From a virus (taxonomy: Duplodnaviria > Caudoviricetes), in IMG/VR virus record IMGVR_UViG_3300027766_000001: a stretch of 64,000 bases of DNA. One strand, 5' to 3'. Below the pieces are notes generated by a model. It was not told the origin of the DNA, made no database searches, and was given only the letters and a program-made list of their open reading frames with translations. Position numbers and translations under genes: made by a program. Below, one piece after another: positions 1,449 to 9,978 of this stretch (positions are counted from its first letter, which is position 1; every line of letters begins with the position of its first letter).

Positions 1449-1674
1449 AGCGGCTATTCTCTGTCTGGTGTCGTACGCGGCACCAGTTTATGCTGACGAG
1501 CGTCCAAAGACTGACCACTGCGTTGCGACTACCATTGACAGTACGGTTATCACGCAGTGTGACAATGGTACTGTTAGCACGGTTAACAATGTCTCTGGTA
1601 CGATGGTGGTTTGTCAGACGTCGGGATCTAACATACCGTCGTGCACCAAAATTAATCTTCGGGAGAAGTCATGA
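1435..1674 (+). CDS. small exported Cys-containing protein
   Basis: In-frame GTG at 1435 within the 1354 ORF gives MRNIKAAILCLVSYAAPVYA-DERP (Sec-signal-like) followed by a Thr-rich domain with 4 Cys. Confidence 0.6.
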   Translation: MRNIKAAILCLVSYAAPVYADERPKTDHCVATTIDSTVITQCDNGTVSTVNNVSGTMVVCQTSGSNIPSCTKINLREKS

Positions 1675-2102
1675 CCAAGAACCAACGTAGACGTAAGCAC
1701 GCACAGCGCAAGCAGCACACCAAAGCTCGCTCAAGCAGTGCGTTGCTGCACCTCCTTAATAACAAGCACAAGTTTGTGGATATGCCGGGGCGCTGGCAGG
1801 ACTCAGTGCCGGAAGGTGTCATCTCAGGTGCGGTGGTCAACCCGGATACCGTTTTCCCTATGCCGTGGATGAGCGCACACGAGCTGATTCAACGTATGGC
1901 CGCGGGACAGATCAAACCGGTGGAGTACATGGACACTGAGGGTGTTTTGCATCGTTCAGTTGCTATTGATGTGGAAGCCATGTATCCGCGTACTGGCGAA
2001 GAGTTTGCTGAGCTCTTCATAATGGCGGGTGATGCTGTTCAGCATATCACCATTGACTCGATTCCTAACGACCCCAAAGGGAACGCGCAGCATGAGTTCT
2101 GA
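1671..2102 (+). CDS. hypothetical protein with basic N-terminus
   Basis: ATGA overlap with upstream gene, GGAG SD. Confidence 0.75.
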   Translation: MTKNQRRRKHAQRKQHTKARSSSALLHLLNNKHKFVDMPGRWQDSVPEGVISGAVVNPDTVFPMPWMSAHELIQRMAAGQIKPVEYMDTEGVLHRSVAIDVEAMYPRTGEEFAELFIMAGDAVQHITIDSIPNDPKGNAQHEF

Positions 2103-2316
2103 TCACTGGGATCTTACCCAACCCCAACACAATGTCACGTACGAAGACACCATCGCGCATGACATTGACCTGGCGAATGCCTCTGCCTGGGAAGAGCGTT
2201 TCAAGGAGCGTCATGGTCGTGAGCCGCGTTTCGTTGAACGTCCTGTCTTTGCCAAACTCACTATTAAAGACGTAAACGATGTCCTTAAAGAAGCGGGCAA
2301 AGCCCAAGGCCAGTAA
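2092..2316 (+). CDS. hypothetical protein (74 aa)
   Basis: ATG 2092 overlaps the end of the preceding gene; preferred over the 2029 start. Confidence 0.6.
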   Translation: MSSDHWDLTQPQHNVTYEDTIAHDIDLANASAWEERFKERHGREPRFVERPVFAKLTIKDVNDVLKEAGKAQGQ

Positions 2317-2548
2317 AGCCAAACCTGTGCGCCGTCGGCGGCGAAGTAAGAAGCGTAAGACAACAGCTGCACCAATGGACCATGCGTTGTCGTTTGCGTT
2401 GAATGGGGAGAAGCCCAAGTACGAACCCTGGGAGCCGTTGCGAGAAGGATACGGTAACAACGATGACCTGGGATTTGGGCGGGCACCTACTGCGGAAGAA
2501 CTGAAGTTCCAAAAAGCATTGTCGGCCCGTTATTTGCGTCGTCGATAA
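2279..2548 (+). CDS. small highly basic protein
   Basis: MSLKKRAKPKASKAKPVRRRRRSKKRK N-terminus; fills the gap before 2600; weak SD. Confidence 0.5.
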   Translation: MSLKKRAKPKASKAKPVRRRRRSKKRKTTAAPMDHALSFALNGEKPKYEPWEPLREGYGNNDDLGFGRAPTAEELKFQKALSARYLRRR

Positions 2549-2557
2549 TCAACCCGG

Positions 2558-2566
2558 TGCTATACT
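2558..2566 (+). promoter_or_regulatory. sigma70-like extended -10 (TGcTATACT)
   Basis: Motif in the intergenic gap upstream of the 2600 ORF. Confidence 0.25.
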
Positions 2567-2599
2567 GGGCTCTTTTAAACTCTGTTAATAGAGGTAATC

Positions 2600-3208
2600 A
2601 TGAGTAAGCTTATTGGTAAAGAAACCCGTTTTGATATGGGTGACCTGCGGGTCATTATGGGGATGTACGAAAACGGGCCCTCTACGTCACCGGGTAGCGC
2701 TGAGAATAAAGTCCTGCTACGTTGGGATGGTGTTGATCTGGCCGACGAATCAACGCTGCCTAAAGCCCTCCTGTATGCCTTCAACGCGGTCGTTAACTGC
2801 AAGCTTGAGTTGCACGATCTGTTGAAGAAAGAAGGTGTGCGCACCGAGATTATGAAACAGCTGATGCAGTTAGGTAAATACCTCGGCATCGACAGACTGG
2901 ACAAGGAAATGAACTCTGTGCAGAGTCGGGTTGAACCTAGCGCAGATGTTCGTCAGTTGTTCCAGTCCTGGGATGATGTGCCGCAAGTCTGGGTGACAGC
3001 TAAAGTCAGTTCATCCAATTACAATCGCCCGCTGTTGTTCTATCCCGATCACCCGCTGTTTAATCCGCAAGATGACGGCGTGGTCTTTACCATTAAGCTT
3101 TCAGGTAATGAGAGCACCACAATCAAACGCGATGTACATTGTCCGTCGTGGAACCTGCCGAATATCCAGAAGCTGGTTGATGAGTTGGTAAGACGTCACT
3201 TTGTGTGA
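2600..3208 (+). CDS. hypothetical protein (202 aa)
   Basis: ORF with AGAGGT SD; followed by terminator. Confidence 0.8.
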   Translation: MSKLIGKETRFDMGDLRVIMGMYENGPSTSPGSAENKVLLRWDGVDLADESTLPKALLYAFNAVVNCKLELHDLLKKEGVRTEIMKQLMQLGKYLGIDRLDKEMNSVQSRVEPSADVRQLFQSWDDVPQVWVTAKVSSSNYNRPLLFYPDHPLFNPQDDGVVFTIKLSGNESTTIKRDVHCPSWNLPNIQKLVDELVRRHFV

Positions 3209-3215
3209 TGTGAAT

Positions 3216-3241
3216 AAAGAGGGCTTCGGTCCTCTTTTTTT
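3216..3241 (+). terminator. intrinsic terminator
   Basis: AAAGAGGGC-TTCG-GTCCTCTTT followed by a T run. Confidence 0.8.
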
Positions 3242-3277
3242 GTCTGATCCTATGAAACCACTGGATCAGAGGCAGAT

Positions 3278-3931
3278 ATGTTAGACTCCATGATTATGAC
3301 CGGCAAACCATACGCCAACTACTACGTTGATTTAAGCTTCGATAAAGATGCGACTGGGTCGCGCATCTTAATGGATCGAGGTACTGCAGCTGTAACGTTT
3401 ACACGCACAGCCAATAGCGCGGGTGCAAATGACGGGGTTGTCGATGACCCTGTATTTGGTAAGTGTTATTTGTTCGATGGCAACGCTTACTTTGTCGGCT
3501 CTAAGGCATTGAACATCTGGAACAAACAGTACCGGATGCGGCTGAAGTTTGTGCCCAATACCACGTTGTCGCGTGGGATAATAGAAACAGGTAATTACCC
3601 ATCATCAGGCAACATCAAAGCAGGGTGGGCGCTGTCGATTAACCAATACACCCAAACGTACTTTCAGATGTTCATGACCCAGCAAAACGGCGTGTACGCG
3701 CGCTTATTGCCGACAGGCGTTAACCCGGGTAACGCGGTGTTGGAAGACTACGAGATCACCCGTATCGGCAGCACCATTACGGTGAAGAACATGAACACCG
3801 GCCAAACCGCGTCAAACCAGTTTTTGACTAACGGTGAAAACAATATCCATGTTGCCGGTAGCTACACTGGCGGGTTTAATAATACGTTCATTGGTTTACT
3901 CAAATCGTTCCAAATCGAACTCTTGGCGTAG
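3278..3931 (+). CDS. putative virion structural protein, ConA/LamG-like beta-sandwich
   Basis: MLDSMIMTG N-terminal tag; FGKCYLFDGNAYF and W-ALSI patterns typical of LamG-like domains; Asn/Gly/Thr-rich; TATG at 3251 upstream. Confidence 0.6.
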   Translation: MLDSMIMTGKPYANYYVDLSFDKDATGSRILMDRGTAAVTFTRTANSAGANDGVVDDPVFGKCYLFDGNAYFVGSKALNIWNKQYRMRLKFVPNTTLSRGIIETGNYPSSGNIKAGWALSINQYTQTYFQMFMTQQNGVYARLLPTGVNPGNAVLEDYEITRIGSTITVKNMNTGQTASNQFLTNGENNIHVAGSYTGGFNNTFIGLLKSFQIELLA

Positions 3932-3932
3932 G

Positions 3933-3961
3933 AGCAGGGCTTCGGCCCTGCTTTTATGCCG
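3933..3961 (+). terminator. intrinsic terminator with TTTTATGCCG tail
   Basis: AGCAGGGC-TTCG-GCCCTGCT then TTTATGCCG. Confidence 0.8.
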
Positions 3962-4008
3962 GTCTGTTTCTTTTGACTATTTCTGTACATCTATTACACT
4001 CCAGGAAA

Positions 4009-4032
4009 TTTCACGCCTACATTACTAATGTG
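4009..4032 (+). promoter_or_regulatory. putative phage early (virion RNAP) promoter
   Basis: TTTCACGCCTACATTACTAATGTG, near-identical to 61079 and 52817; resembles the phiKZ early TATATTAC-type motif. Confidence 0.65.
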
Positions 4033-4083
4033 AATGCATTCCTGCTCATTATCGAGTGACAACCTGTAAGAGGATAATACCCC

Positions 4084-4797
4084 ATGAATCACCAGAACCC
4101 ACACGCTAACAAAAACGTTGATGCTAAAGTTATCGACGGTTCGATTTCAACTATCAACGACCTGATCTTTACGTTGACGGGTAACAACGATATCCATGTT
4201 AACCCTGACGTCGGTTCCGTTCACGGTAAGCGTCGTGTACCTAACGTCCATGGTGAACTGATCACCGAAGAAGCAGTCACCGGCTTTATTGCCTTTGGCT
4301 TTGAGAACTACCAGACTTCTGATGCGTACTTCAGCGACAAGCCGTTTGTGCGTCTGGTCTCACACCTGATCGTGGTTACGCCAAAGAGCAAATCCGATTA
4401 CATCAAAAGCATCGAAGACGCCGAGCATCCGGTAGAAGCCTTTGCGCCAATCTACGTCATGTCCTTAAATGGTCAGATGATCGCGGATGCGTTGATTGTC
4501 GCACTGGACCGCCTGGGTTATGTGGCCGATGTAAAACTGGTCGCTAACGCTCTGAGCAACACGGCGCGTGACAACAACGGCTTTGCGGATAAGAAGCCAG
4601 AAGTCATTAGCATCGTCCGCATTACTGAAAATCTGTTTATCAGCAAGTGGTCCGCGTTCTACGGCGTGCAGCGCAGCAACCTCGATCTGCCAATGCCGTC
4701 TAAGCTGGTTCGTCAACCGCACCCAATGGACGCACTCATCAACAAAACCATTAAATCGAGCGATGAGCTCGACAACCTCAAACCCACTAACGAGTAA
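4084..4797 (+). CDS. hypothetical protein (237 aa)
   Basis: First ORF after the early-promoter motif; GAGGA SD. Confidence 0.8.
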   Translation: MNHQNPHANKNVDAKVIDGSISTINDLIFTLTGNNDIHVNPDVGSVHGKRRVPNVHGELITEEAVTGFIAFGFENYQTSDAYFSDKPFVRLVSHLIVVTPKSKSDYIKSIEDAEHPVEAFAPIYVMSLNGQMIADALIVALDRLGYVADVKLVANALSNTARDNNGFADKKPEVISIVRITENLFISKWSAFYGVQRSNLDLPMPSKLVRQPHPMDALINKTIKSSDELDNLKPTNE

Positions 4798-6041: not shown

Positions 6042-6518
6042 ATGGAAGAATTAAGTAAGATAGATCGGTCGAATATCAGCAGAATTGTCTCTGGTCGCGA
6101 CTGCGTGGTTTGGTGTGCGGGTGTGATCGTCGACCTTGCTATGGAAAACGGCTGGCGCTGTGATCGTGTTCACATCCCAATTCCTTACCAAATTGCCCTC
6201 GACCTCCATCGCCACTCTTACGGCGGTGAGGGTATCCGTCACAAAGAAATCACGCTTGACTTTAAAGACCATCGTAACGAGTTACAACAGTTGACGTTTG
6301 AGTTAAGCTTTGATAAAGAGTCTAATGATTCTGAATCGATCTACTTTCCGCGTAACGTAAAGTTAGAGCATTTGAAGTGTAGCGATTACAAGATCAAAGC
6401 CCATAACCCACGTTTAGAAGTAAATCTGGTTTTGGGTCGTCAGCTTATCGGTCATGATGGTTGGACCAATGGGGATTTTGCCAGAACGGATCCTAGTTGG
6501 GAATATCATCAGTACTAG
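6042..6518 (+). CDS. hypothetical protein
   Basis: Operon ORF with AGGTG SD. Confidence 0.75.
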   Translation: MEELSKIDRSNISRIVSGRDCVVWCAGVIVDLAMENGWRCDRVHIPIPYQIALDLHRHSYGGEGIRHKEITLDFKDHRNELQQLTFELSFDKESNDSESIYFPRNVKLEHLKCSDYKIKAHNPRLEVNLVLGRQLIGHDGWTNGDFARTDPSWEYHQY

Positions 6519-6540: not shown

Positions 6541-6571
6541 ACAGCGGGGATTCACCTCGCTGTTTTTTTTT
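6541..6571 (+). terminator. intrinsic terminator
   Basis: ACAGCGGGG-ATTCA-CCTCGCTGT plus T run. Confidence 0.75.
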
Positions 6572-6585
6572 GTTGAGGTGAAGTA

Positions 6586-6996
6586 ATGGCCAAGGTCTAT
6601 AGCAAAATAGTGGCGATCTCCACTGACTTTGCCGGCGACTTCTCGTTTCCCGAATTACGGAAATGTCTGCCTACCGGTATCCGCATCACAGCACTGTACA
6701 ACTTTGCCACCGCTACGCAATTTGCAGCCGATGTAAAAGCGGCTATGAAACGCAGTGACGTTATTGTTGTAGACACCAGTGATCACACCTTACGCTTCTT
6801 ACGTCTGCTGGACATTCCGTATCAGCTGATCTACGCAAGCTACTGTGTGACCGATATTGAACAGCGTCACATCACCAACTGCCGACGCCAGGCCAACTGT
6901 ATCCACACGGAACTGAAAGCCCGAGGCGATTACAAACGTCTGGTATTCGACTTCCGTGAAGATCAGGGATTGTCGGTTGAGCTTCCATCAGCATAA
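6586..6996 (+). CDS. hypothetical protein
   Basis: GAGGTG SD; ends at bidirectional terminator. Confidence 0.75.
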   Translation: MAKVYSKIVAISTDFAGDFSFPELRKCLPTGIRITALYNFATATQFAADVKAAMKRSDVIVVDTSDHTLRFLRLLDIPYQLIYASYCVTDIEQRHITNCRRQANCIHTELKARGDYKRLVFDFREDQGLSVELPSA

Positions 6997-7395: not shown

Positions 7396-7429
7396 ACCCC
7401 GCCTCCAGGACGGATAAAAAGCGGGTTAC

Positions 7430-7771
7430 TCACCCGCCTTTGATTTGTTTTTGTGCGTCCGCTAATGCTTTCTCCAGTTTAGAGATGTTGGCATTTGACG
7501 AATCGTTGTTTTTCGATGCGTACTCTTTGACTCGAGTAATCATCAACTTCTGTTTGGCGTAGGTGTAAGTCATCCAGGTAGCAAAGTTGATACCCAGATA
7601 CTCTTCTATCTTGTTGTCCAAATACTCATCAAGATAACCACCAAAGCCACTGACCAATAACGAATCCTCTTGCTCGACCTGGCTGGCCAGCGAGAACGGT
7701 GATAAATCAGCATCGTGGTCAACGATGCCGTACGTATCATCGTAGAGCTCCATCAACCGCAAGCGCGCCAT
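7430..7771 (-). CDS. conserved hypothetical; probable frameshift-accessed C-terminal (T-like) extension of the 7864-9489 protein
   Basis: Its frame stays open 48 codons upstream to 7915 with no ATG/GTG/TTG; YLDEYLDNKIEEYLGINFATWMTYTY resembles tail-chaperone T/gp51-like tails. Confidence 0.7.
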   Translation of the reverse strand: MARLRLMELYDDTYGIVDHDADLSPFSLASQVEQEDSLLVSGFGGYLDEYLDNKIEEYLGINFATWMTYTYAKQKLMITRVKEYASKNNDSSNANISKLEKALADAQKQIKGG

Positions 7772-7863
7772 TTCCGGATCACCCGCTAAGAACTTGGGAT
7801 CTGTTAAGGCCCGTTCCCAGGCCTCACTCCGGTCTTGGTACGCGCTACCGAAATCGTGGTGAA

Positions 7864-9489
7864 TCAGATGTCGGCTGTGTTGATAGAATTGTTCAGCATA
7901 TTCGCCAAGAGGGTAAAAAAAGCCCTTTCCATGTTTACAGGGGTGTAATCAGGGAACTGGTCATTGACCGCAGGTTGCTTTTGTTTACACGCCTGACAGG
8001 TATAGCGCGGCAGTGCAATCACACCGATGGTGACTTCGTTGATGTACGCGTTCACTTCCTTATAGAAGGATTCTTTGAACGACTCATCTTTGCTCAGTTC
8101 AGCCAGTTGGGTATAGATGTCTTCGCTGCCATCGATATAACCATCAACGTCGCCGTTGGCATCGAGGTAGTCAATGCGTGATACCCAGTGCGAATAGTTA
8201 CGCAGTGCCGAGATCGCCGCCTGCTTGTTGATGTATGCCACACGCTCATCACGGGACATGGTGTCCTTGAAGCTCAGGGTCACCGCATCTTCGATGTTGT
8301 CGATCCAGGCATCACCCGCTTTCATCTTCTCTTCGATCGACGGTGTGGCGAACACAACGCGGATACTCGGAGTGATGTTACGGATGTTGTTGTTCATCGC
8401 CGAGAAGTGCTCCTGGTACGCCAGAACCGACTCCGTGGTATGACCGCTACGACGACGAATGTGTGCACGCTGAGCGTCAGTCAGACGGGCGTTGTCGATG
8501 ATGCTCATGCGGTTGATGTTGACTTTATGAACGGCCACATCACCACACTTCACCGGATCAACCTGGCAAGGCTGCGCCAGTGTGTAACCTGAACGGAAAC
8601 GCGCCGCCATGTAACCAGCGATCAGCAGCGGGATATCCTGCACCTTGATCAGGTTCACCAACTCTTTCTTGTTGGCGTGACCGAGCGAGGTTTGGAAGAT
8701 CATGCCTGACAGCAGTTCCCACAGGTGACGCAGAATAATCACGTCAGAGTTAGAGAACACCAGACCCGCTGTACGACGACCCAATACCGATTTGGTATTG
8801 ATCACACGCGTATGGAAGTTCACCATCTCGTCTTCACCTGCAACCAGCAGCGTTACCCAGATACCGGTGTGCGGCGCAGGCAGTGTGATGAAGTCGCCGA
8901 TGCCCATTTCCTGGCGCGCACGCATCATCGCGTTCTTGCCGGTCAGACGTTCGCCTTTCTTGTGCTTGTCGTCTTTGATGTTCGGACGATGTGCACCGAT
9001 GACTTTGTCGCCAACCAGAATACCCTGCAGCCACTGGGAGTCTTTACGCATCACCGTTGGGGTCAGGCCGTTACGATACGCCATGTGGTTAATGGCGCTC
9101 TGTGTCGCCGCCAACCAGGTCATCGCCGCTTCCGCACCGCGCAGACGAATCATTTCACGAAACATTTCAGTTTCAGCCGAATCCGCCGCACCTTTATCGA
9201 TCTCAGAGATCAGGTCACCGATGGTGATCTGGTCGCCGTGCGCCACATGCAGGATGTCTTTCAGATCTGCATACGGGGTCAGGATCTTTTCCAGGATTGG
9301 TGACTCATACAGCGGGTCCAGTTCCGGGTCAGCTTCCGGCAGAAGATCTTCTTCCGGGTTTTCCGTGTTCAGTTCCGGTTCAACGATTTCGTTATCAACC
9401 GGCAGCGTTTGCTGCTGCGCTTTCTGTTCCAGCACAGCGTTAACGTCGAGTACCGGCTCGTCGTGTTCGTTTGGGATTTCACCTGACAT
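7864..9489 (-). CDS. conserved protein (phiKZ gp77-like by synteny); candidate tail/baseplate assembly chaperone
   Basis: 541 aa, acidic N-terminus, CxxxxxxC and C-terminal CQAC motifs like T4 gp26/gp51-type hub assembly proteins; slippery T7 near the 3' end. Confidence 0.6.
   Translation of the reverse strand: MSGEIPNEHDEPVLDVNAVLEQKAQQQTLPVDNEIVEPELNTENPEEDLLPEADPELDPLYESPILEKILTPYADLKDILHVAHGDQITIGDLISEIDKGAADSAETEMFREMIRLRGAEAAMTWLAATQSAINHMAYRNGLTPTVMRKDSQWLQGILVGDKVIGAHRPNIKDDKHKKGERLTGKNAMMRARQEMGIGDFITLPAPHTGIWVTLLVAGEDEMVNFHTRVINTKSVLGRRTAGLVFSNSDVIILRHLWELLSGMIFQTSLGHANKKELVNLIKVQDIPLLIAGYMAARFRSGYTLAQPCQVDPVKCGDVAVHKVNINRMSIIDNARLTDAQRAHIRRRSGHTTESVLAYQEHFSAMNNNIRNITPSIRVVFATPSIEEKMKAGDAWIDNIEDAVTLSFKDTMSRDERVAYINKQAAISALRNYSHWVSRIDYLDANGDVDGYIDGSEDIYTQLAELSKDESFKESFYKEVNAYINEVTIGVIALPRYTCQACKQKQPAVNDQFPDYTPVNMERAFFTLLANMLNNSINTADI
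7915..7921 (-). promoter_or_regulatory. candidate -1 ribosomal frameshift site T TTT TTT
   Basis: Minus strand reads AGG GCT TTT TTT ACC; a -1 slip enters the open frame of 7430..7771. Confidence 0.6.
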
Positions 9490-9938
9490 TACTGACCTTC
9501 CTTCTGTTGGTTCTGCGCAGCAACCGCTGCAGCGTGTGCGCGCTCGTTAGAATTAAACAGCGGCAAAAAGTAATCGTTGTATACGTTCATCAGTTCACTT
9601 TGAACAAGGACATATTCTTCATTGATCGCTAAGAACTGCTGGACGTCACCTGAACCCAGTGCATACCCCGCACGACCTGCGTGCTTCATGTGCAACTGTG
9701 CCAGCATCGGCTCGACTTTGTTAATGGTGGTCAGGACCGTTTCGATCCAGAGGTTTAAACCAGCAACGTTGTCGTGGAAGCGAATGATGTTAGGGTTCAC
9801 CGCCATCATACAAGCGTTACGGTACTGCGTGATCAGGTCAATCGTATAGACCCGGACGGTGTTATCCAGATATTCCCAGGTAGAATCGACTGGGGGTTTC
9901 ATGGCATCGGCCAGTGAGACAAGCGGTGTAGTAGACAT
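9489..9938 (-). CDS. conserved hypothetical protein
   Basis: ATG 9938 (MSTTPLVSL) with AAGGG SD preferred over TTG 9962; TAATG overlap with the downstream gene. Confidence 0.75.
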   Translation of the reverse strand: MSTTPLVSLADAMKPPVDSTWEYLDNTVRVYTIDLITQYRNACMMAVNPNIIRFHDNVAGLNLWIETVLTTINKVEPMLAQLHMKHAGRAGYALGSGDVQQFLAINEEYVLVQSELMNVYNDYFLPLFNSNERAHAAAVAAQNQQKEGQ

Positions 9939-9978
9939 AAGTTTGACGCCCTTAGAGAACAAAAAAGAATAAACCCTT

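Follow-up and report, generated by a model that had tools for sequence, protein, structure and literature searches.

The 64,000-nucleotide stretch analysed here (the window) is the IMG/VR virus record IMGVR_UViG_3300027766_000001, which belongs to the Caudoviricetes (Duplodnaviria). Its minus strand carries a gene for a protein of 541 amino acids (aa), related to gp77 of phage phiKZ, and downstream of it a 113-aa open reading frame (ORF) (Table 1). An earlier note, made from the sequence alone, had proposed that a programmed -1 frameshift near the end of the first gene fuses it to the second, and all the sequence features that it invoked are present. The gene reads GCT TTT TTT ACC 16 codons before its TGA, with the heptamer in the X XXY YYZ phase of the 0 frame. 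In the window sequence, the -1 frame is closed by a TGA located 11 codons upstream of the re-read T. From this T onwards it stays open for 161 codons, the initial 48 of which (YPLGEY...AGDPE) contain no ATG, GTG or TTG and then continue in frame with the ATG of the 113-aa ORF. A slip after F525 is predicted to yield a trans-frame product of 525 + 161 = 686 aa and 77.3 kDa beside the 541-aa protein, which matches the fusion of about 686 aa expected in the earlier note. The predicted junction tryptic peptide of this product is AFFYPLGEYAEQFYQHSR.

Table 1 Features of the gp77-like locus and its immediate surroundings in the window
Feature	Position	Strand	Description
0-frame gene	7864-9489	minus	541 aa, 60.6 kDa; C-terminus ...NMERAFFTLLANMLNNSINTADI, then stop
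Slippery heptamer T TTT TTT	7915-7921	minus	third base of Ala523 GCT + Phe524 TTT + Phe525 TTT
-1-frame extension	7430-7915	minus	161 codons + TGA (7430-7432); 18.4 kDa, acidic
Dual-coding overlap	7864-7914	minus	final 16 codons + stop of the short form versus first 17 extension codons
ATG of the 113-aa ORF as called by gene callers	7769-7771	minus	preceded by GGTGAT
Intrinsic-terminator-like hairpin	7416-7437	minus	GCGGGT-GAGTA-ACCCGC, then TTTTT; encloses the extension stop codon; palindrome also found by scan
Upstream gene of the same operon	9489-9962	minus	157 aa, phiKZ gp78-like, phrog_10945
Overlap of the gp78-like stop with the ATG of the 541-aa gene	9487-9491	minus	TGATG

The conservation of this layout was studied in loci from GenBank phage records and IMG/VR contigs. 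Among the 55 loci gathered, 48 are homologous and non-redundant; they cover phiKZ, 201phi2-1, SPN3US, phiEaH2, RAY, RSL2, FBKp24, JM-2012, PDCC-1, BONAISHI, 29 IMG/VR contigs and others. An open and homologous -1 extension of 150-179 codons is entered at the site in all 48 loci. The site itself reads T TTT TTT in 25 of them, T TTT TTC in 17, G TTT TTT in five and CTT TTT in one (Vibrio phage pVa-21), and the heptamer is in phase with the 0 frame in 42 of the 48. A conserved slippery heptamer with an open -1 overlap was recovered by alignment in phiKZ, 201phi2-1, SPN3US, RAY and every lineage examined. Start codons ahead of the slip are absent from the -1 frame of most loci, and in several loci a stop closes this frame just 3-6 codons before the slip. 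Past the slip, the earliest codon at which translation could begin in this frame is reached after 2-135 codons (codon 85 of 165 for phiKZ, codon 135 of 154 for locus L029). On the protein side, the Phe-Phe pair (FF) encoded by the site is nearly invariant in 121 representatives, and no natural fusion is found among the 150 best representatives, all of which end about 10-20 aa after FF. The frameshift layout goes beyond what chance would produce, since a random frame would stay open for 161 codons with a probability of ~4e-4, runs of seven T or A (T7/A7) are rare in the window (three in all) and the same layout recurs in 48 of 48 loci.

The two other T7/A7 runs of the window, at 3235 and 6563-6571, are intergenic. 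The T run at 3235 (3215-3241, plus strand) comes after a hairpin, AGAGGGCTTCGGTCCTCT, like the tail of a terminator. The run at 6563-6571 (plus strand) is made up of nine T and is located between an ORF that ends at 6518 and another that starts at 6586. Among the homologous loci, the six with a weakened site (pVa-21, at locus positions 3600-3620, with GTA CTT TTT; L014, L015, L024, L026 and L027, with ACG TTT TTT) retain the full extension; they might shift less efficiently or rely on the slippage of a single tRNA. Two candidate fusions were rejected. Compared with SPN3US, whose layout is the usual one with T TTT TTC, SEGD1 gp042 (a single ORF of 795 aa) contains one inserted nucleotide. The two loci (1736-4123 in SEGD1, 1482-3884 in SPN3US) show 23 differences in 2.5 kb and an extra C in SEGD1 about 10 codons upstream of FF; because of this one base, the SEGD1 body is in frame with the extension. 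The extra C may be an error of sequencing; otherwise, SEGD1 would be a natural mutant restricted to the long form. The 686-aa protein of phiEaH2 simply has a long N-terminus and uses the same slip site.

The slippery nucleotides are, as judged from codon usage in the aligned loci, conserved beyond what the amino acids require. The first Phe of the site is encoded by TTT in 43 of 44 loci, versus 29.6% TTT at the other Phe codons of the same genes, and the wobble base that precedes FF is a T in 38 of 44 loci, versus a background of 26% (P ~1e-18 and ~1e-14, respectively; both values are nominal and ignore shared ancestry). In the window gene, only one of the 12 other Phe codons is TTT. Selection on the two frames was also studied. 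Between close relatives, the part of the extension that lacks start codons has a ratio of nonsynonymous to synonymous divergence (dN/dS) of 0.11-0.15, and the remainder of the extension does not differ from it in this respect. Over the 17 codons of the overlap, dS is only 0-0.42, versus values above 1 downstream, a drop that is expected under dual coding. The recurrence of the layout in 48 of 48 loci and these marks of selection support the proposed programmed -1 frameshift that would fuse the 541-aa gene to the downstream ORF.

The extension behaves as a protein from its very first codon. The 161-aa translation matches phrog_13274 with E = 1.8e-39, versus 8.4e-24 for the annotated 113 aa, so the 48 start-less codons raise the match by 15 orders of magnitude. 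Likewise, tblastn homology of the extension begins at residue 1, that is, exactly at the slip site. In the alignment, a conserved (H)x4-5FG motif is located in a disordered linker, and its nearly invariant F22 lies inside the start-less 48 codons. The AlphaFold2 (AF2) model of the extension (predicted local distance difference test, pLDDT, 78) shows helices at residues 30-61 and 85-116 and a long C-terminal helix of ~40 residues (119-160). Its comparison with BFVD and the PDB only returned its own family and generic coiled coils. The suggestion that the extension is a T-domain of the tail assembly chaperone (TAC) kind was not borne out: there was no TAC or Phage_tail_T match in Pfam or PHROG at E <= 1, and no fold match in the PDB. 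In the AF2 model of the 541-aa protein, the last helix spans residues 520-539 and includes the slip position; on this model the long form would therefore exchange 16 helical residues for a Pro-containing linker.

The 541-aa protein is a full-length match to phrog_4585 (E = 1.8e-122). Using it as a query, tblastn matched 218 phage records, among them PHIKZ077, 201phi2-1 gp136 and RAY gp267, and the matches also span SPN3US-type, RSL2-type and Vibrio jumbo phages. The phiKZ gp077 and RAY gp267 proteins correspond to the core gene cg18 of the Chimalliviridae, a 'hypothetical protein' (Prichard et al. 2023, supplement). An exhaustive HMMER search with the gp77 family gave 1305 representative clusters. 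Among named phages, Erwinia phages pEa_SNUABM_37/48 and Salmonella phage SA002 are the closest, with ~65-68% amino-acid identity. The phage itself is new, since none of 50,697 phage records gave a megablast match to the locus.

The AF2 model of the 541-aa protein, based on a 121-sequence alignment, is of good quality (pLDDT 85.9, predicted TM-score 0.86). The N-terminal ~65 aa are disordered and followed by a helical domain, and the core (~183-525) resembles T4 gp26/gp51 and contains two conserved cysteine pairs (C308/C315 and C498/C501). Searches of this model against the PDB with Foldseek and VIA-align gave no real match (Z < 7, helical hairpins only), the family profile found no match among PDB sequences, and Pfam and NCBIfam searches with both parts returned noise only. 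Further searches for related loci, with the window protein and with a 12-sequence alignment, gave nothing usable. Foldseek against BFVD returned the protein's own family and then more than 12 models named 'baseplate hub assembly protein, T4-like', 'baseplate hub assembly chaperone' or 'baseplate hub subunit'; these matches, which compare predicted with predicted structures, have E values from 1.6e-5 to 1e-1, TM by target of 0.5-0.58 and a probability of ~1 for most. AFDB models of ~250 aa, some of them named 'baseplate protein', align over residues 183-525, and the match ends at the slip site. A tandem duplication of the gp26 fold within gp77 was considered and dropped, as these alignments cover 183-525 as one unit. 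In the ESM-Atlas, a neighbour in shape carries PF12322 (T4_baseplate), a domain present in 85 of 100 named ESM feature neighbours and matched by T4 gp26 and gp51 with 216 and 178 bits, respectively. Thus, the resemblance to gp26/gp51 put forward in the earlier note holds at the level of the predicted fold (BFVD, AFDB and the PF12322 neighbours) and fails at the level of sequence profiles. Based on these models, we regard gp77 as structurally related to the gp26/gp51 family but do not place it within that family.

Sequence comparison strongly supports a programmed -1 frameshift that would give isoforms of 60.6 and 77.3 kDa. We consider it likely that the 541-aa gene and the small downstream ORF are a single recoded gene whose body resembles a hub assembly chaperone. 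In the proposed mechanism, most ribosomes would stay in frame on GCT TTT TTT ACC and stop 16 codons later, releasing the short form. A minority would slip back by one base with two tRNA-Phe in the P and A sites on U UUU UUU, read UAC CCU and onwards, and add the 161-residue helical extension of the long form. Residues 1-525 would be common to both, and, as in lambda G/GT, the frameshift would determine in what fixed proportion the plain form and one with an additional docking or oligomerisation domain are made.

Several observations weigh against this reading or parts of it. The support for the long product is purely comparative, and the codon statistics given above are nominal. The heptamer is imperfect in six of the 48 loci. 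The 70 nt downstream of the site fold no better than shuffled sequences (mean z = -0.42 over the 48 loci), and a Shine-Dalgarno-like motif is present upstream of the site in only two of the 48. A conserved 3' hairpin was considered and rejected: a single pairing, CCGACAUC...GAUUUCGG, is found ~36 nt downstream in close relatives, and it is constrained by dual coding, too distant and not general. In this phage, the ATG at 7771 could yield some free 113-aa product. As to the nature of the body, neither the window protein nor 23 relatives match PF12322 at the gathering score, and hhalign against a 26-sequence gp26/gp51 profile (shallow for gp26, Neff ~3) gave probabilities of 3-11%, with the whole alignment as with sub-domains. 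Finally, transcriptional and ribosomal slippage would give identical proteins; that it is the ribosome that slips, and how often, we infer. As the search for a conserved RNA structure or a Shine-Dalgarno stimulator was negative, the heptamer alone probably determines the efficiency, which is then likely to be low; judging from phage sites that work without a stimulator, a few percent is probable.

The same 686-aa protein would be made if a phage or host polymerase stuttered on the T7-T8 run and produced mRNAs with one additional U. The phiKZ-like phages use their own unusual multisubunit RNA polymerases, the conserved element is a homopolymeric run that reaches T8 in many loci, and a ribosomal stimulator was not found in the 48 loci. 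Yet, about ten loci have just six consecutive T's (ACT TTT TTC, ACG TTT TTT), and six-T runs are shorter than those known for useful transcriptional slippage. Moreover, a phase-free run would be expected to drift in position, which the observed run does not; what is invariant is a codon-phased TTT TT(T/C), read by one tRNA-Phe species, as fits tandem ribosomal slippage. Since this codon-phased element is invariant and about ten loci have only six T's, tandem ribosomal slippage is clearly favored over polymerase stuttering, which we regard as improbable.

It seems more improbable still that there is no recoding and that the downstream ORF is a separate gene translated from its own start at 7771, with the open -1 stretch above it left untranslated. 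An ATG preceded by GGTGAT does exist in the window, two genes are annotated in every public record examined, an ATG occurs two codons past the site in locus L024, and a TTG close to the upstream stop in 201phi2-1. Nevertheless, the 48 start-less codons are conserved as protein, with the low dN/dS, the gain in family match and the nearly invariant F22 described above, and the slippery codons are kept against codon bias. The start is also not conserved: relatives have GTG, CTG or TAT at the position of the ATG, Agricanvirus-type relatives having Tyr instead of Met, and the possible starts vary from 2 to 135 codons past the site. An independent start at 7771, which the earlier note had named as the full alternative, is accordingly weakened. 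The last explanation, that a homopolymer error in sequencing or assembly has split a single 686-codon ORF or given a wrong length to the T run, is hardly credible. Such indels are common and SEGD1 does have a single ORF, but the two-frame layout is found in 48 independently sequenced genomes and contigs, the 0-frame tail past the site is conserved and so is its stop, and the SEGD1 fusion is due to an insertion located 10 codons away from FF. Taken together, the comparative results therefore exclude a sequencing artefact and make independent initiation inadequate, and a programmed -1 frameshift is the reading retained in what follows.

The function of the recoded gene may be approached through its shared body. 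T4 gp26 and gp51 are hub assembly chaperones (Leiman et al. 2010, PMC3004832), and since the gp77 body resembles them in predicted structure, a role in hub assembly is proposed. On these models, gp77 would most likely be a non-virion assembly factor for a T4-like hub. This role fits three further observations: the hub of Goslar is T4-like (Goslar virion cryo-electron microscopy paper); gp81, which we take to be the Goslar homologue of cg18, is unmentioned in the text of the same paper; and the records of 201phi2-1 gp136 and gp135 do not carry the 'identified by mass spectrometry' note that their neighbours have. The chaperone function and the partners of the protein are our inference.

The surroundings of the gene are those known from phiKZ: a gp80-like RNA polymerase subunit gene and a gp79-like gene are divergent upstream, followed by the gp78-like gene, the gp77-like gene and the extension. 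The locus is flanked by a virion-RNA-polymerase subunit gene (beta-type) on one side, and by small genes without assignment on the other. The order of the gp78-like and 541-aa genes is kept in phiKZ, 201phi2-1, RSL2, pVa-21 and FBKp24, and the overlap between the stop of the former and the ATG of the latter suggests that they are translationally coupled. At the other end, the terminator-like hairpin would, from its sequence, mark the end of the transcription unit.

All the public records examined give two genes and none annotates a frameshift. The start of the downstream 'gene' differs in every record, and gene callers fail at the extension because there is no start codon there. In RAY, gp266 (protein version.2; locus 2417-2965) starts 28-30 codons upstream of the slip and overlaps gp267 by 136 nt; this annotated start is missing from most relatives. 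The phiKZ gp076.4 (locus 3757-4218) covers only the final 80 extension codons, and small opposite-strand ORFs replace the extension in Pseudomonas phage KEN49 (locus 2020-2520). The site is not described in the literature searched on phiKZ, SPN3US, jumbo phages with frameshift, PHIKZ077, gp76.4 and the RAY proteome, which agrees with the impression of the earlier note that such a frameshift had not been reported for phiKZ-like phages. A frameshift that is universal in a well-studied family would then have gone unannotated in the records examined. One of the ~70 core genes of the nucleus-forming phages appears to be mis-annotated in every record examined: the long isoform is missing, and in place of its second half the records show a shortened small gene, spurious antisense ORFs or nothing. 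The phiKZ-like nucleus-forming phages are intensively studied and are candidates for therapy. Recognising the frameshift would correct their core proteome and predicts a 77-kDa protein. It would also give cg18 a first functional lead, as a hub assembly factor similar to T4 gp26/gp51, and add to the few recoding signals of prokaryotes a U-run site that is deeply conserved and has no stimulator. Also concerned are essentiality screens, by transposon sequencing (Tn-seq) or antisense oligomers, in which the two ORFs count as distinct genes.

The closest parallel in organisation is found in the TAC genes of other tailed phages. A conserved -1 frameshift of these genes is reportedly present in lambda (gpG/gpGT), P2 (E/E+E'), Mu and many siphoviruses. 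As in lambda G/GT, a -1 slip on a heptamer takes place near the 3' end of a morphogenesis gene, so that an N-terminal body is common to both forms; TAC genes of this type are also said to need no strong stimulator and to keep their signal across very divergent phages, and P2, like the phages studied here, is said to slip on a T run. The idea of a G/GT-like pair is therefore sound for the 3'-proximal layout of short and long forms. It does not extend to membership in the TAC family, against which size, synteny, sequence and fold all speak, and the G/GT-type reading is an analogy, not a membership. The stronger claim, homology of the jumbo-phage pair to lambda G/GT or P2 E/E+E' with an action on the tape measure and the tube, has in its favor the shared recoding logic, with two forms at a fixed ratio, and the resemblance of the body to T4 hub assembly chaperones, the T4 tape measure gp29 being anchored in the hub; in addition, the literature searched holds no report of a TAC for phiKZ-like phages. 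Against it, the Pfam, PHROG and fold searches brought up neither TAC nor T-domain families, the protein has four times the size of G (a body of 525 aa versus ~130 aa), the gene is not located between the tube and tape-measure genes, and T4 gp26 has no slippery site (its FF is TTC TTT). We therefore regard such homology as rather unlikely, and a link to the tape measure would be conjectural. Another tentative scenario, to which we would not give better chances, is that the gp77 pair is the missing TAC system of T4-like/jumbo contractile tails: the body would hold the hub/tape-measure complex, the extension would recruit or space the tube initiator or the tube at a ratio fixed by slippage, and the G/GT logic would have evolved independently on an unrelated fold, as a universal and essential recoding event in all nucleus-forming phages.

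The resemblance to T4 concerns the protein and not the recoding. The predicted fold of residues ~183-525 is similar to gp26/gp51, two conserved Cys pairs are present on both sides and neither side appears to be a virion component. As in gp77, the fold of the gp26 family ends with a C-terminal CPxC and, ~14 residues further on, an almost invariant FF. The C-terminus of T4 gene 26 itself (locus 7803-8429, minus strand), ...CPECGKTHAHVIRGLKEFFELL, resembles the CPxC...FF end of the gp77 core, without slippery codons. T4 gene 26 also has two products; however, according to a note in its record, gp26' comes from an internal in-frame start and not from a frameshift. In T4, FF is encoded by TTC TTT, gene 25 begins at its own ATG and there is no frameshift. 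The two families also differ by the lack of a sequence-level match and by the large insertions and additional N-terminal domain of gp77.

Two other recoded genes are similar in part. In E. coli dnaX, a -1 slip on a homopolymeric heptamer sets the ratio between the tau and gamma isoforms of an assembly factor; that shift truncates the product and is driven by a Shine-Dalgarno sequence and a hairpin, whereas the one proposed here extends the product with no stimulator seen. In T7 gene 10A/10B, some copies of a structural product are extended by a -1 shift on a U-rich heptamer, G GUU UUC, located just a few codons ahead of the stop. In that case, the recoded gene encodes a capsid protein and its ~50-aa extension is dispensable, whereas the extension of the gp77-like proteins is a conserved domain of 150-179 aa.

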